From Eledone cirrhosa (lineage: Eukaryota): a stretch of DNA of 64,000 nt. The stretch is taken from positions 10,974,001 through 11,038,000 of the forward strand of contig OZ024758.1 in assembly GCA_964016885.1 (NCBI GenBank), given 5' to 3'. A program made the position numbers and the translations under genes. How positions within the stretch are numbered: the stretch's first letter is position 1; each line of letters opens with the position of its first letter. Shown here piece after piece: positions 3,692-46,141 of this stretch. Under the pieces are notes generated by a model. The model did not search any database and was not told where the DNA came from. It saw only the letters and a program-made list of their open reading frames with translations.

Positions 3692-3905
3692 ATTTATTTT
3701 TCCATTGCTCATACTATTTGCCGGTAGCAACTCTTGGCAGAAGCATTAACATGTGACGAGATTGAACTCAACATTTATTTTTCCATTGCTCATACTATTT
3801 GCCGGTAGCAACTCTTGGCAGAAGCATTAACATGTGGCGAGATTGAACTCAACATTTATTTTTCCATTGCTCATACTATTTGCCGGTAGCAACTCTTGGC
3901 AGCAA
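3692..3905. repeat. 81-bp tandem repeat, about 2.6 copies
   Basis: tccattgctc at 3701, 3782 and 3863. Confidence 0.9.
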
Positions 3906-6196: not shown

Positions 6197-6616
6197 ATAT
6201 ATATATATATATATATATATAAAAGCTAGAAAGATTTATAGAGGAAGTATTGATCCTTTACTAGTCTTAATGTATCAAATCACAAAATTCCTTAGCTGCA
6301 ACAATTGTTCTTATATCCAGTAATCAATGTGTATATGGCAAAGCAATCCTGAAGTCCAAATATTAAATACGTTCAACGTTAATACTGTCGTTATTCACGG
6401 CACAGACCCAGTAGTTTTATCAATAAAAATGTCACTACCCTGCCAAACAAGCATAAGAAATTTTAATTATATGAAGTCAATTTCGATTATATTAATAGCT
6501 AATGTTTTGAACTGCTTGATAAGATACGGTTTTCCCATAAAATATGGTCGCGTAAACAAAACGATATATGATGTCTAAATGAAGCCATACTGATTGTGTA
6601 TATATTTTGTGTTTAG

Positions 6617-7508
6617 TATAGACACATGGGTTTATATGTGTGATATAAATACATAGGTTTATATGTGATATAGACATAGGTTTATATGGGTTATATAAAT
6701 ACATAGGTTTATATGTGATATAGACACAGGTTTATATGTGATATAGACACAGGTTTATATGTGATATAGACACAGGTTTATATGTGTGTAATATAGACAC
6801 ATGGGTTTATATGTGTGATATAGATACATAGGTTTATATGTGATATAGATACATAGGTTTATATGGGTTATATAAATATATAGGTTTATATGTGATATAG
6901 ATACATGGGTTTATATGTGTGTAATATAGGCACATTGGTTTATATGTGTGATATAGATACATAGTTTTATATATGTGATATAGATACATAGGTTTATATG
7001 TGTGTAATATAGACACATGGGTTTATATGTGTGATATAGCTACATAGGTTTATATGTGATATAGACACATGGGTTTATATGTGTAATATAGACACATACT
7101 TTATATGTGTAATATAGACACATGGGTTTATATGTGTAATATAGACACATGGATTTATATGTGTGATATAGACACATGGGTTTATATGTGTAATATAGAC
7201 ACATACTTTATATGTGTAATAGAGACACATGGGTTTATATGTGTGATATAGCTACATAGGTTTATATGTGATATAGACACATGGGTTTATATGTGTAATA
7301 TAGACACATACTTTATATGTGTAATATAGACACATGGGTTTATATGTGTAATATAGACACATGGATTTATATGTGTGATATAGACACATGGGTTTATATG
7401 TGTAATATAGACACATACTTTATATGTGTAATATAGACACATGGGTTTATATGTGTAATATAGACACATGGATTTATATGTGTGATATAGACACATGGGT
7501 TTATATGT
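6617..7508. repeat. About 21-25-bp minisatellite
   Basis: Repeated atatagacacatgggtttatatgtgt(a/g) units. Confidence 0.92.
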
Positions 7509-19748: not shown

Positions 19749-20436
19749 AATGTCCTTTACAGCATAAAACCACCTTAGCAAGCCATTCTTGAAAAGTACA
19801 AAACAGTACTAAAACTACACGACATTAAATGTCCTTTACAGCATAAAACCACATTAGCAAGCCATTCTTGAAAAGTACAAAACAGTACTAAAACTACACG
19901 ACATTAAATGTCCTTTACCACATAAAACCACCTTAGCAAGCCATTCTTGAAAAGTACAAAACAGTACTAAAACTACACGACATTAAATGTCCTTTACAGC
20001 ATAAAACCACATTAGCAAGCCATTCTTGAAAAGTACAAAACAGTACTAAAACTACACGACATTAAATGTCCTTTACAGCATAAAACCACATTAGCAAGCC
20101 ATTCTTGAAAAGTACAAAACAGTACTAAAACTACACGACATTAAATGTCCTTTACCACATAAAACCACCTTAGCAAGCCATTCTTGAAAAGTACAAAACA
20201 GTACTAAAACTACACGACATTAAATGTCCTTTACAGCATAAAACCACATTAGCAAGCCATTCTTGAAAAGTACAAAACAGTGCTAAAACTACACGACATT
20301 AAATGTCCTTTACAGCATAAAACCACATTAGCAAGCCATTCTTGAAAAGTACAAAACAGTACTAAAACTACACGACATTAAATGTCCTTTACCACATGAA
20401 ACCACATTAGCAAGCCATTCTTGAAAAGTACAAAAC
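19749..20436. repeat. 79-bp tandem repeat, about 8.7 copies
   Basis: tgtcctttac at 19751, 19830, 19909 and onward; few variant sites. Confidence 0.95.
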
Positions 20437-21079
20437 GTCATTATAACTACATCACATTTAAAATTGAAGTCTTTATTTTTAGTTTACTACAAATTGTCAC
20501 AGCAGTCTTTACACTAGTAAATATACTATAAACATCTGAATTAACAAACTTGGTTTTAGATATTTCTGCTGAATCATTACATGATGCTAAGAGTGAATAT
20601 AATGTCTCTTAGACTGGAGTAACTCAGTTTAAGATGGCGGAATACTCAATTACATCGTCACTGCTTTAATTGTAGTTATCAATAACAGCAATAGCACACC
20701 TAATATTATTTTACACTTTTATAATCTCCATCTTGATTTTGCTTAACAACAAATATGTCAGACAGGAAGTACTTGCTGAGAAATTAAGACTCTATTAACA
20801 AAACAAAAGCCACTGGAGTTCGAATTGGAAGAAATTCGTGATGTTGTGAGTCATTGATGATAAATTCAATAACTATACACACACAAAAAAAGAAATAAGT
20901 TTATTATCGTCGAGAGAAGAGAATTTTAACCTTACTCTTACGAAAGAACAACAAATTCATTCCATTTTGATAAATTTGTTTGATAAACAGAATGCATTTA
21001 TAAAATTTCTTGATAAAGTACTTTTCAGAATCGTATATTAGTTTAGCGACATACACCAAAGCTAGGAAATTTTCTTTAT

Positions 21080-24430: not shown

Positions 24431-24490
24431 TTTGTCTGATGAAGGCATACCATATTTTAATTTGGTATCCCTGAAATATGCATCGTCAGT
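24431..24490 (+). ncRNA. Hammerhead-like core with weak stem I
   Basis: CTGATGA agg c atacca...tggtat c cct GAAA tatgca TC. Core, stem II and AUC triplet are present; stem I pairs poorly. Confidence 0.45.
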
Positions 24491-24946
24491 GGTGCTATTG
24501 TTTCCTCCCGTTGCAGATGTGCAACGAAAGAACTTTGATAAACTATATATATGTGTTTGTGTCTATATTGTATCTGTATTATTTTTGACCGTCGGTCAGT
24601 CAATGGCAACATTGAGGACCGAATAAATAGATTACCGATATAAAAGATACAGAAACGAAAAGCGAAAACCAACCAAACAGTGAGTGTGTTCTGTTATTAA
24701 TTCTGGCAATATTACACAAATATGACCCTCCCCAAGTATAACAATATTTGTTTCGACACACGATTTCATATCAAAAACCTCGCAAAACTATATATATATA
24801 TATATAAAACCTTTTGTATTTTCATTGGTCAAAAACCTCGCAAAACTATATATATATATGCATAAAACCTTTTGTATTTTCATTGGTCAATTTTGTTCCC
24901 AAACGGACCTGAAATTTTGAATTGTTGTTATTATCAATAAATATAT

Positions 24947-25294: not shown

Positions 25295-25330
<36 letters not shown>

Positions 25331-25452
25331 AATATAGACATAGAATATTCGAAAATATTCTGTATGTTTATAATAAACATTTTGAAGACCTAATCGCTAT
25401 AGAATAGAATACGTCACGTATTACAATTAGATTCTCGATAAAAGCAAGGGAA

Positions 25453-25495
25453 GTAATCTACGCGTTTCATTCTCGTTAGAAATCATCAGGACTAC
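25453..25495 (-). ncRNA. Type I hammerhead ribozyme (representative; also at 25763, 26073, 26383, 26693, 27003, 27313 on -)
   Basis: Exact reverse complement of the motif at 27948-27990. Confidence 0.85.
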
Positions 25496-27947
25496 ATATC
25501 CAGTGCTTTTATCGAGAATGACACAGCTAGAGACTTATAGAATACTTAGCTGTGTACAGGAACTGGTTTGAAAGAGCGGTTGCCGGTCCGGCAGAAATTA
25601 GAAATTGGAATAAATGCTCTGAAATAGCGATATATATGTGAATATAGACATAGAATATTCGAAAATATTCTGTATGTTTATAATAAACATTTTGAAGACC
25701 TAATCGCTATAGAATAGAATACGTCACGTATTACAATTAGATTCTCGATAAAAGCAAGGGAAGTAATCTACGCGTTTCATTCTCGTTAGAAATCATCAGG
25801 ACTACATATCCAGTGCTTTTATCGAGAATGACACAGCTAGAGACTTATAGAATACTTAGCTGTGTACAGGAACTGGTTTGAAAGAGCGGTTGCCGGTCCG
25901 GCAGAAATTAGAAATTGGAATAAATGCTCTGAAATAGCGATATATATGTGAATATAGACATAGAATATTCGAAAATATTCTGTATGTTTATAATAAACAT
26001 TTTGAAGACCTAATCGCTATAGAATAGAATACGTCACGTATTACAATTAGATTCTCGATAAAAGCAAGGGAAGTAATCTACGCGTTTCATTCTCGTTAGA
26101 AATCATCAGGACTACATATCCAGTGCTTTTATCGAGAATGACACAGCTAGAGACTTATAGAATACTTAGCTGTGTACAGGAACTGGTTTGAAAGAGCGGT
26201 TGCCGGTCCGGCAGAAATTAGAAATTGGAATAAATGCTCTGAAATAGCGATATATATGTGAATATAGACATAGAATATTCGAAAATATTCTGTATGTTTA
26301 TAATAAACATTTTGAAGACCTAATCGCTATAGAATAGAATACGTCACGTATTACAATTAGATTCTCGATAAAAGCAAGGGAAGTAATCTACGCGTTTCAT
26401 TCTCGTTAGAAATCATCAGGACTACATATCCAGTGCTTTTATCGAGAATGACACAGCTAGAGACTTATAGAATACTTAGCTGTGTACAGGAACTGGTTTG
26501 AAAGAGCGGTTGCCGGTCCGGCAGAAATTAGAAATTGGAATAAATGCTCTGAAATAGCGATATATATGTGAATATAGACATAGAATATTCGAAAATATTC
26601 TGTATGTTTATAATAAACATTTTGAAGACCTAATCGCTATAGAATAGAATACGTCACGTATTACAATTAGATTCTCGATAAAAGCAAGGGAAGTAATCTA
26701 CGCGTTTCATTCTCGTTAGAAATCATCAGGACTACATATCCAGTGCTTTTATCGAGAATGACACAGCTAGAGACTTATAGAATACTTAGCTGTGTACAGG
26801 AACTGGTTTGAAAGAGCGGTTGCCGGTCCGGCAGAAATTAGAAATTGGAATAAATGCTCTGAAATAGCGATATATATGTGAATATAGACATAGAATATTC
26901 GAAAATATTCTGTATGTTTATAATAAACATTTTGAAGACCTAATCGCTATAGAATAGAATACGTCACGTATTACAATTAGATTCTCGATAAAAGCAAGGG
27001 AAGTAATCTACGCGTTTCATTCTCGTTAGAAATCATCAGGACTACATATCCAGTGCTTTTATCGAGAATGACACAGCTAGAGACTTATAGAATACTTAGC
27101 TGTGTACAGGAACTGGTTTGAAAGAGCGGTTGCCGGTCCGGCAGAAATTAGAAATTGGAATAAATGCTCTGAAATAGCGATATATATGTGAATATAGACA
27201 TAGAATATTCGAAAATATTCTGTATGTTTATAATAAACATTTTGAAGACCTAATCGCTATAGAATAGAATACGTCACGTATTACAATTAGATTCTCGATA
27301 AAAGCAAGGGAAGTAATCTACGCGTTTCATTCTCGTTAGAAATCATCAGGACTACATATCCAGTGCTTTTATCGAGAATGACACAGCTAGAGACTTATAG
27401 AATACTTAGCTGTGTACAGGAACTGGTTTGAAAGAGCGGTTGCCGGTCCGGCAGAAATTAGAAATTGGAATAAATGCTCTGAAATAGCGATATATATGTG
27501 AATATAGACATAGAATATTCGAAAATATTCTGTATGTTTATAATAAACATTTTGAAGACCTAATCGCTATAGAATAGAATACGTCACGTATTACAATTAG
27601 ATTCTCGATAAAAGCAAGGGAAGTAATCTACGCGTTTCATTCTCGTTAGATTTCTAACGAGAATGAAACGCGTAGATTACTTCCCTTGCTTTTATCGAGA
27701 ATCTAATTGTAATACGTGACGTATTCTATTCTATAGCGATTAGGTCTTCAAAATGTTTATTATAAACATACAGAATATTTTCGAATATTCTATGTCTATA
27801 TTCACATATATATCGCTATTTCAGAGCATTTATTCCAATTTCTAATTTCTGCCGGACCGGCAACCGCTCTTTCAAACCAGTTCCTGTACACAGCTAAGTA
27901 TTCTATAAGTCTCTAGCTGTGTCATTCTCGATAAAAGCACTGGATAT

Positions 27948-27990
27948 GTAGTCCTGATGATTTCTAACGAGAATGAAACGCGTAGATTAC
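27948..27990 (+). ncRNA. Type I hammerhead ribozyme (representative; also at 28258, 28568, 28878, 29188 on +)
   Basis: gtagtc CTGATGA t ttct aacg agaa t GAAA cgcg TA gattac. Stem I gtagtc/gattac, stem II ttct/agaa, palindromic stem III (acgcgt), predicted cleavage after GUA at 27984. Stem I is extended by a perfect 16-bp helix 27924-27939/27997-28012. Confidence 0.85.
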
Positions 27991-29572
27991 TTCCCTTGCT
28001 TTTATCGAGAATCTAATTGTAATACGTGACGTATTCTATTCTATAGCGATTAGGTCTTCAAAATGTTTATTATAAACATACAGAATATTTTCGAATATTC
28101 TATGTCTATATTCACATATATATCGCTATTTCAGAGCATTTATTCCAATTTCTAATTTCTGCCGGACCGGCAACCGCTCTTTCAAACCAGTTCCTGTACA
28201 CAGCTAAGTATTCTATAAGTCTCTAGCTGTGTCATTCTCGATAAAAGCACTGGATATGTAGTCCTGATGATTTCTAACGAGAATGAAACGCGTAGATTAC
28301 TTCCCTTGCTTTTATCGAGAATCTAATTGTAATACGTGACGTATTCTATTCTATAGCGATTAGGTCTTCAAAATGTTTATTATAAACATACAGAATATTT
28401 TCGAATATTCTATGTCTATATTCACATATATATCGCTATTTCAGAGCATTTATTCCAATTTCTAATTTCTGCCGGACCGGCAACCGCTCTTTCAAACCAG
28501 TTCCTGTACACAGCTAAGTATTCTATAAGTCTCTAGCTGTGTCATTCTCGATAAAAGCACTGGATATGTAGTCCTGATGATTTCTAACGAGAATGAAACG
28601 CGTAGATTACTTCCCTTGCTTTTATCGAGAATCTAATTGTAATACGTGACGTATTCTATTCTATAGCGATTAGGTCTTCAAAATGTTTATTATAAACATA
28701 CAGAATATTTTCGAATATTCTATGTCTATATTCACATATATATCGCTATTTCAGAGCATTTATTCCAATTTCTAATTTCTGCCGGACCGGCAACCGCTCT
28801 TTCAAACCAGTTCCTGTACACAGCTAAGTATTCTATAAGTCTCTAGCTGTGTCATTCTCGATAAAAGCACTGGATATGTAGTCCTGATGATTTCTAACGA
28901 GAATGAAACGCGTAGATTACTTCCCTTGCTTTTATCGAGAATCTAATTGTAATACGTGACGTATTCTATTCTATAGCGATTAGGTCTTCAAAATGTTTAT
29001 TATAAACATACAGAATATTTTCGAATATTCTATGTCTATATTCACATATATATCGCTATTTCAGAGCATTTATTCCAATTTCTAATTTCTGCCGGACCGG
29101 CAACCGCTCTTTCAAACCAGTTCCTGTACACAGCTAAGTATTCTATAAGTCTCTAGCTGTGTCATTCTCGATAAAAGCACTGGATATGTAGTCCTGATGA
29201 TTTCTAACGAGAATGAAACGCGTAGATTACTTCCCTTGCTTTTATCGAGAATCTAATTGTAATACGTGACGTATTCTATTCTATAGCGATTAGGTCTTCA
29301 AAATGTTTATTATAAACATACAGAATATTTTCGAATATTCTATGTCTATATTCACATATATATCGCTATTTCAGAGCATTTATTCCAATATATATATATA
29401 TATATACTTAGGGTAAACATTGATGCAATTCAAATCAAGCACTCAACGTACTTATTCCACATAGGAGTGACGGAGTAAATATCGACTAAGGAAAAGCAAA
29501 GTAGTTTCAGATGTTCAAGTCCTTTAATAATTAAAGGACTTGAACATCTGAAACTACTTTGCTTTTCCTTAG

Positions 29573-29635
<63 letters not shown>

Positions 29636-45733: not shown

Positions 45734-45990
45734 ATTTCTTCTCAGAAGACCTTCTGCTGTCCAACTTTCCTGAAATGTTCTCACCAGGTGATATGAATTT
45801 GTAGATAAGAGGTTAAGGAGGGTGTCTTTAAAGACCTTCTGCTGTCCAGCTATCCTGAGAGTTTCTTCTCTGAAGACCTTCTGCCGTCCAACTTCCCTAA
45901 AATGTTCTCACCAGGTGATATGAATTTGTAGATAAGAGGTTAAGGAGGGTTTCTTTGAAGACCTTCTGCTGTCCAGCTCTCCTGAGAGTT
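45734..45990. repeat. 127-bp tandem duplication in the last intron
   Basis: gaagaccttctgc at 45745 and 45872. Confidence 0.9.
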
Positions 45991-46141
45991 TTTTTAATAC
46001 TATCACGTTTAGTTATTCTATACATGTTTAAATAAAATAAAAACATTATCAAAACGTAATTGACCACCATATTGTAAAAGAACTACTGACAAAGATTGGC
46101 TAATTGTTTTCTTTATTGTCTGTTTTCTTCTTTTGTTATAG

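Follow-up and report, generated by a model that had tools for sequence, protein, structure and literature searches.

We suggest, with a probability that we put at roughly 0.6, that the array described here belongs to a young non-coding retroelement of 310 nt, i.e. a hammerhead-bearing non-LTR retrozyme, that is moved in trans by an endonuclease-bearing Penelope-like element (PLE), with both ends of a cut target priming reverse transcription and the two products being joined centrally by end-joining. Insertion works like PLE insertion and leaves the full PLE footprint, and what is inserted is no autonomous PLE. There is good support for double-ended priming at two fixed sites followed by end-joining in the centre, and this priming is very likely of the PLE type. 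The mechanical footprint of PLEs is here found on a non-coding ribozyme RNA at more than 1,000 young sites, which points to the enzyme that moves this RNA and, probably, to a circular RNA.

A two-armed array between TA runs

The window, i.e. the whole 64-kb stretch of DNA that was analysed (G000:C19:10974001-11038000 of the 3.0-Gb assembly), contains a 310-bp type I hammerhead unit in 7.5 copies on the minus strand and 5.6 copies on the plus strand, and all copies are 100% identical. Unit phases are counted in the ribozyme sense, with phase 0 at position 27649. The features are as follows.

25298..25327, no strand: left (AT)15 target run, of which the final 8 nt fit unit phases 157-164 too
25320..27650, minus strand: left arm, 7.5 units, 2,331 nt; outer (3') end at site A, phase 164; inner end at phase 4
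27649..27650, no strand: central junction with 2-nt GA microhomology, joining both inner (5'-truncated) ends; both central ribozymes are cut
27649..29389, plus strand: right arm, 5.6 units, 1,741 nt; outer end at site B, phase 190; inner end at phase 0
27924..28012, plus strand: one intact type I hammerhead, predicted from motif and fold
29355..29389, plus strand: "tail", from the modal A end (phase 155) to the modal B end (phase 190); at one insertion end only
29388..29406, no strand: right TA target run, 19 nt; its first 2 nt are common to the unit

As an earlier note on this DNA had described, the arms face in opposite directions, with the ribozyme sense diverging from the centre, and they overlap in a 2-nt microhomology. 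Its account of the outer ends is also borne out: the left arm stops in the unit's own AT run, fused to (TA)n, and the right arm stops at phase 190 and passes into the 19-nt TA run, so that the array adjoins (TA)n directly on both sides. The note had placed the flip inside stem II of the ribozyme, which is correct for the left breakpoint but not for the right one, which lies in the core. Similarly, CTGAT is missing from the right central ribozyme as proposed, whereas the left one lacks all of CTGATGA plus 2 nt.

The arms form a perfect inverted repeat of 1,737 bp around a 2-nt spacer and hold 12 intact hammerhead cores, seven in the left and five in the right arm. The junction string occurs a single time in the whole assembly. 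The flanks are not mirror images of each other, and the two arms stop at different unit phases. A target-site duplication is not callable at this insertion because its ends sit within (TA)n. MicroRNA matches over the junction were rejected, as they reflect the palindrome only. The array is a young and real insertion that is ordinary within its family as to its junction.

The unit and its ribozyme

In the hammerhead at 27924..28012, the core motif CTGATGA lies at 27954-27960 and GAAA at 27975-27978 (unit phases 305-1 and 16-19), and cleavage is predicted after 27984 (phase 25). Stem II has 4 bp above a U.U mismatch, helix III has 1 bp with a palindromic tetraloop, and stem I, of 6+3 bp, is closed by a 16-bp helix; the constrained fold has -30.4 kcal/mol compared with -31.9 kcal/mol for the unconstrained one. 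In its 1-bp helix III and palindromic tetraloop the ribozyme resembles the axolotl HHR_Amex1, and in the U.U mismatch under helix II it resembles HHR_Amex2 (PMC7229834). We base the identification on motif, fold and this likeness to the axolotl retrozyme ribozymes. The Rfam match is weak: one unit matches HH9 with 15.8 bits and an E-value of 0.11, i.e. below the gathering score of 52, and at the gathering score nothing within the 64-kb window matches. None of 31 fixed-variant sites falls in the ribozyme core (1.2 expected, P 0.29), so that selection on the ribozyme is not significant.

Like the non-LTR retrozymes of animals (Cervera and de la Pena 2020, PMC7229834; Li et al. 2026, bioRxiv 10.64898/2026.07.22.740005), the arrays consist of a low-GC tandem unit of ~300 bp with one type I hammerhead per unit. 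The unit length lies within 150-450 bp, G+C is 107/310 and thus below 50%, each unit has a hammerhead and the element is non-autonomous; on the features examined, we classify the unit as a non-LTR retrozyme. PLE-type reading-frame motifs are absent from the whole window, and the unit itself is just 310 nt. Because no frame with reverse transcriptase (RT) and GIY-YIG endonuclease lies in or is attached to the arrays, the unit is a passenger and not an autonomous PLE. Folded in silico as a circle, it has a z-score of -4.1 relative to 100 shuffles, which would be compatible with a circular RNA.

A family with fixed and paired outer ends

An invariant 16-mer of the unit occurs 19,077 times across the assembly (control, 0), corresponding to ~5.9 Mb. 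Two end patterns gave 781 and 666 matches on the forward strand (controls, 0 and 25); the reverse-strand counts were inflated by repeated matches, and doubling of the forward counts gives ~1,300-1,600 insertions. We read 85 loci including the window, most of them from the first 106 Mb of contig C1. Ten were found via the ribozyme core, 53 via end patterns (paired or unpaired) and 18 via two variants, while three had been missed by the end patterns. Two resolved arms are present in 67 loci and a single arm in 16; the two unresolved loci stop at an assembly gap (L063) or have an 11-nt stub (L076). At L056, the same insertion is present twice beside an assembly gap, possibly by duplication in the assembly.

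The polarity is head-to-head in 67/67 resolved two-armed loci, and each of them pairs one A end (phase 152-164) with one B end (phase 181-197), ~35 nt apart; there are no A+A or B+B pairs among them. In a tally of 112 outer ends, A ends lie at 153-164 with a mode at 155 (33/59) and B ends at 188-197 with a mode at 190 (35/53), and the two modes are 35 nt apart. As these 33 A ends stop before the unit's own AT run, the fusion to that run in the window is incidental. TA adjoins all 112 tallied ends, most loci having been found via patterns that demand TA; among the ten loci found via the core in a search without this bias, nine are two-armed with A+B and one has a single arm, and 19/19 ends lie in TA-rich DNA. 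At both ends of the arrays, internal unit positions are joined to TA, with no poly(A)-primed 3' end. The single-armed loci have an A end in 13 cases and a B end in three (p 0.02).

The same build recurs in a sister family with a unit of 322-326 bp that is ~67% identical to the 310-bp unit (L121, L096:8716-9262 and L124-L153; 1,603 first-look candidates). In 17 of 30 stretches of this family there are two arms of the same polarity, and all 11 with both ends resolved are A+B. Its hammerhead, with a palindromic helix III, has U3-A8 in place of the C3-G8 core pair, a swap that presumably obeys the pairing rule for these two positions. For C3/G8, this rule is stated in PMC11167929.

The two-armed architecture is far beyond chance. 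The earlier note had proposed to tabulate orientation and breakpoints in other copies, and this tabulation gave one build for all 67 resolved two-armed loci. With 66 further loci of this build, the array in the window is neither an artefact nor a one-off.

Central junctions and arm lengths

Junction statistics refer to the 52 loci with a simple junction; L042, where the junction is duplicated, was left out. The 104 inner ends are evenly spread across the unit (chi-square p 0.41), with 4 of them in core and stem II (8.4 expected) and 2 within 5 nt of the ribozyme cut site (3.7 expected). This distribution rules out that stem II or the cut site has any particular influence on where junctions fall. 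Because the inner ends are uniform and core and stem II are not enriched, the break within the ribozyme in the window is a matter of chance, and the position of the flip inside stem II is incidental.

Overlaps of at least 2 nt are present in 23 of 38 insert-free junctions compared with 18% expected. Inserts are present at 14/52 junctions, and all seven inserts of 6-16 nt were copied from at most 60 nt away (origin examined for 13 of the 14, with an insert of 272 nt treated apart). We take this pattern of overlaps and templated inserts to be that of polymerase-theta-type end joining. The 272-nt insert, at L051:1499-1770 (G000:C1:45281598-45281869), is a piece caught between the arms from a repeat that is clustered on contig C25 (190 candidates, 96-98% identical); Rfam gave no family near it.

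The median arm has 4.3 units, and 83/104 arms have at least 2 units. The A arm is longer in 25/52 loci and the B arm in 27/52, and the two lengths are uncorrelated (rho 0.18, p 0.2). Junctions within 5 nt of a perfect palindrome number 3/52 (1.8 expected). Thus, fold-back is ruled out as the rule because neither arm is regularly longer and the inner ends are not mirrored. The likeness to inverted Penelope insertions that the earlier note had seen stands, but the template switch that it had offered as one way to arrive there is rejected on the same grounds.

The other way that it had named, twin priming of the L1 type, is ruled out as well. In LINE-1 twin priming, reportedly described by Ostertag and Kazazian in 2001, both target ends are said to prime on one RNA, giving an inverted 5' part and microhomology at the inner junction. 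The insertions reported here share the inversion, the microhomology and, probably, the priming of one RNA by both ends. However, there is no poly(A) priming, and the second start is a fixed site rather than a product of chance annealing, the two starts being fixed adjacent sites that delimit a "tail" as in PLEs. Moreover, the first arm does not stop at the second primer (B inner ends at phases 145-185, 8/52 vs 6.9 expected; A inner ends at phases 180-200, 6/52 vs 3.5 expected), and both arms copy the same sequence many times.

Haplotypes and variants point to the template

The two arms agree in haplotype in 40 of the 43 loci where arms are at least 330 nt long, with 18 haplotypes in total; in 100,000 permutations the mean was 7.6 and the maximum 18. 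Together with the uniform polarity in 67/67 loci and the combination of fixed outer and variable inner ends, this upholds the central proposal of the earlier note that the two ends left by a break in (TA)n were primed on a single RNA species. From the purity of the arrays and the haplotype identity, it is likely that one circle served both arms. Haplotypes are, however, lineage-wide, and arm identity can thus also arise from two RNAs of one source locus.

Among the 453 units in arms shorter than 3.5 kb, 55 variants are confined to a single unit and 2 occur in several units; the corresponding counts for arms of at least 3.5 kb are 17 and 9 (Fisher p 0.0003). Because short arrays are nearly free of multi-unit variants, they were not built by stepwise duplication, and the long arrays were reworked later. 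In a lineage marked by a 2-nt deletion (9/9 loci read), three loci each carry one further variant that is absent from the other eight and fixed in every unit, in two of the three in both arms. Fixation of a variant across a whole array needs a one-unit bottleneck followed by amplification, and a circle supplies both. Variants 235A and the deletion of 76-77 were rejected as private variants since both mark lineages with many loci (327 and 77 units). In 589 units, the position of ribozyme cleavage (phase 25/26) is free of indels.

Single-unit variants common to both arms occur in L050, L085, L086 and L184; in L086, the variant is in the outermost unit of the B arm and the innermost unit of the A arm. 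Position 301 is mixed within arms in L066, where the B arm reads AAAAGG and the A arm G throughout, and in L068. A pure monomer circle cannot yield such patterns; either a multimeric template or gene conversion between the arms has to be assumed. In L184 (G000:C4:267858700-267863400), 225T nearly alternates from one unit to the next in either arm, with a shifted register between the arms, possibly pointing to a dimeric template.

The change from A to G at phase 301, in stem I, recurs on several haplotype backgrounds (L036, L053, L066, L067, L068, L094 and L169) and could reflect A-to-I editing of the template RNA, recombination or conversion. A 46.5-unit arm at G000:C1:217,795,000-217,810,100 (L166-L168) is a mosaic of repeated variant blocks, a pattern that is evidence of expansion after insertion; other long arms have 48 (L091/L092) and 27 units (L048). 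The 46.5-unit array was rejected as the source of the 235A lineage: its 235A units also have 39A, and ten pure 235A loci were read that lack 39A.

A model for insertion and its alternatives

In the model that we favour, an array would be transcribed and cut by its hammerheads, probably as dimers, into monomers that are then circularised, as in known retrozymes. A PLE protein would then cut both strands of a (TA)n tract, the tract being observed as the target at these loci. Each DNA end would prime reverse transcription at one of two RNA sites ~35 nt apart, always one at A and one at B, with site A probably first; the paired ends themselves are observed. Each RT would subsequently make a variable and independent number of turns on a monomer-equivalent template, most simply one circle, as suggested by the observed purity and haplotype identity. 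Finally, the two cDNA 3' ends would be joined in the centre by microhomology-mediated end joining, for which the microhomologies and templated inserts argue, and the junction in the window would be one random outcome of this step.

Such a model agrees with what has been reported for PLEs. A PLE protein, for which a dimer is predicted, cleaves AT-rich DNA on both strands and extends both; reverse transcription begins at two neighbouring positions inside the RNA, with no homology involved, and the stretch between these positions corresponds to the genomic tail; hammerhead cleavage is dispensable for insertion in vitro (PMC11167929). PLE copies typically have an inverted 5'-truncated copy, a tail of 30-40 bp at one end and a bias for microsatellites and (TA)n, while the origin of their tandem and inverted structures was termed undefined (PMC8557442). 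In a more detailed form of the model, to which we give slightly less than an even chance, the process would be double rolling-circle target-primed reverse transcription: a single PLE dimer would hold a single 310-nt circular ribozyme RNA at the two fixed sites, each half would take one end of the cut (TA)n tract, the two RTs would follow one another around the circle, each displacing the cDNA of the other, and the centre would be closed by end-joining of the host. If so, retrozyme arrays would be born full length, and obligate asymmetric double priming rather than self-priming would explain the inverted pLTR and the tail of all PLEs.

Given double-ended priming, a monomeric circle is quite probably the usual template, and the competing views of the template deserve weight in different measure. 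It is conceivable, but considerably less probable than the model that we favour, that the PLE protein primes from both ends on two RNAs, or on linear or circular multimers of one source array, with an asymmetric dimer enforcing the A/B pairing. Cross-arm variants in different registers (L086, L184 and L066) argue in this direction, as do the lineage-wide haplotypes, which make two RNAs of one source alike, the use of uncut RNA as the main substrate in vitro (PMC11167929) and multimeric retrozyme RNAs on record (PMC7229834). However, a linear multimer passes on single-unit variants as such and has no means of spreading a new variant to all units of the two arms. Nested variants that are fixed in this way are frequent, and only 2/57 variants in short arms are shared among units; at the least, a monomer bottleneck is needed between insertion generations. 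Repeated end-to-start jumping on a linear ribozyme-cut monomer, instead of a closed circle, would account for purity and haplotype identity equally well, and PLE RTs are related to telomerase (PMC8557442). Jumping is nonetheless improbable: the cut site at phase 25/26 has 0 indels in 589 units and no pile-up of inner ends (2/104 within 5 nt, 3.7 expected).

To each of three further alternatives we give little credence. That short two-armed insertions were enlarged later by unequal exchange or slippage, i.e. local amplification as favoured in bioRxiv 10.64898/2026.07.22.740005, describes what is seen in long arrays, such as the 46.5-unit mosaic at G000:C1:217.8 Mb, and 9/26 variants in arms of at least 3.5 kb are common to several units. 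Yet 83/104 arms have two units or more while short arrays are pure or have single-unit variants, and the 13 units in the window are identical, making later growth a very improbable origin of the arrays. Equally improbable is single priming followed by fold-back, either by the self-priming proposed for head-to-head repeats of PLEs (PMC3846280) or by a template switch onto the nascent cDNA. The junction in the window, a near-perfect palindrome with a 2-nt spacer, is what fold-back would leave, but a copied-back arm cannot exceed its template, near-palindromic junctions are as rare as given above, both outer ends are fixed sites, and at the window locus the left arm would have to have grown by 2 units after insertion. 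Thus, self-priming does not fit because fold-back is contradicted by the arm lengths and the fixed outer ends. The least probable explanation is an assembly artefact from fold-back chimeric reads, for which the 100% identical, near-palindromic arms could be cited, no spanning read having been found in the run sequence examined, a stretch that does not include the window junction and skips site B as a repeat. Fixed paired ends, dissimilar flanks and varied junctions are not what chimeric reads would produce: the flanks are not mirrored, the arms end at different phases, 66 other resolved loci have the same build with different and mostly non-palindromic junctions, and site A ends run into TA in seven contigs of sequencing run X1, which may be the source sample.

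Because its template is periodic, the family can tell apart models between which ordinary PLE copies do not discriminate. Fold-back is thereby rejected, and the strict use of one A and one B start site in vivo becomes visible. For the PLE assay that already exists in vitro (PMC11167929), the unit offers a ready-made RNA of 310 nt whose two start positions are predicted.

Relation to retrozymes and PLEs

For non-LTR retrozymes, multimeric cDNA made from circles and PLEs as candidate mobilisers have been proposed (PMC7229834, PMC7761336), and a PLE mobiliser with rolling-circle cDNA is part of the published view of these elements, too (PMC7229834; bioRxiv 10.64898/2026.07.22.740005). The candidacy of PLEs rests on co-occurrence and sequence kinship in these two sources, the latter of which links retrozymes to pLTRs by phylogeny. 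Unlike the published head-to-tail retrozymes, most insertions reported here are two head-to-head arrays with fixed paired starts in (TA)n. The words "inverted" and "orientation" are absent from the main text of PMC7229834, the supplementary model figure of which may bear on novelty, and "orientation", "tail" and "head-to" are absent from the available text of bioRxiv 10.64898/2026.07.22.740005. In the literature searched, which included PMC4209133, PMC8969392 and PMC9977147 and mostly excluded subscription journals, retrozyme arrays in head-to-head arrangement with paired starts were not found to be described.

With the endonuclease-bearing PLEs (Penelope/Poseidon, Neptune, Nematis and Naiad; PMC8557442, PMC11167929, PMC3846280), the insertions share a head-to-head 5'-truncated copy, a tail of 30-40 bp, two adjacent internal starts without homology, (TA)n targets and a hammerhead near the starts. 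They differ in that there is no reading frame and that the arms are several identical turns of a 310-nt unit, whereas arms of PLEs are a partial tandem of a 3-4 kb element; also, no homologous autonomous partner was found here. The non-autonomous elements of Chlamys, e.g. MRC1, are likewise non-coding PLE passengers with multicopy insertions into microsatellites (PMC8557442). By contrast, those are head-to-tail multicopy elements of green algae with (C)n or (CA)n targets that resemble the 3' end of their autonomous partner and mostly lack canonical hammerheads (PMC8557442).

PLE frames and PLE-type hammerheads abound in this genome. Among the 85 loci read, no autonomous PLE shares the unit sequence and no array is joined to a PLE frame across real sequence; the PLE frame that adjoins an arm in L063 was rejected since an assembly gap separates the two. 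A profile search for pLTR kinship among the loci read matched only further retrozyme-like families. A young head-to-head insertion at L075:2780-8301 has arms of at least 2.7 kb that are 99.96% identical, each with a frame of ~480 residues. These frames bear what we take to be PLE-like endonuclease motifs, and a PLE-like frame from this locus matched no Pfam family. The L075 insertion appears to be an autonomous-type PLE with the same inverted build, and no kinship to the 310-bp unit was found.

The unit was also followed in other sequence sources. X1 contains both main haplotypes. No RNA run was among the sequencing runs listed for the unit. In runs X4-X20, with 16 other organism labels, 0.41-0.61 of the words of unit and flank are present, X5 and X11 each giving one low-depth contig of 340 nt; raw reads of organism B (X23, of which ~1 in 100 was read) gave 0 matches. 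Contamination is as likely as real presence in these runs, and we do not claim horizontal transfer.

Related families and other repeats in the window

Third and fourth related families are represented by L179:2238-2757, L034:4360-4721 and L039:53-495. Between families, phases ~84-260, around and behind the start sites, are kept while the ribozyme is not, and this segment is a candidate protein-binding element.

To the right of the array, 29407-29574 is the outer end of another TA-targeting repeat, for which reason an empty site, suggested earlier as a check, is not obtainable from paralogues of the right flank. The first 25 nt of this repeat have 1,144 matches with at most 1 mismatch; of 25 copies read, 16 adjoin TA or T, eight share one extension, i.e. 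a second, tail-like end, and one is different. The copy in the window is short and inverted in its own right, and its centre, near 29525, is palindromic. On the left, 24436-24750 has a hammerhead-like motif at 24436 and is a dispersed repeat with matches of up to 98% in other loci; it looks like the end of another Penelope-type element. Further tandem repeats in the window are located at 3692-3902 (81 bp period), 6610-7508 (27 bp), 19749-20458 (79 bp), 24771-24890 (58 bp) and 45735-45991 (127 bp).
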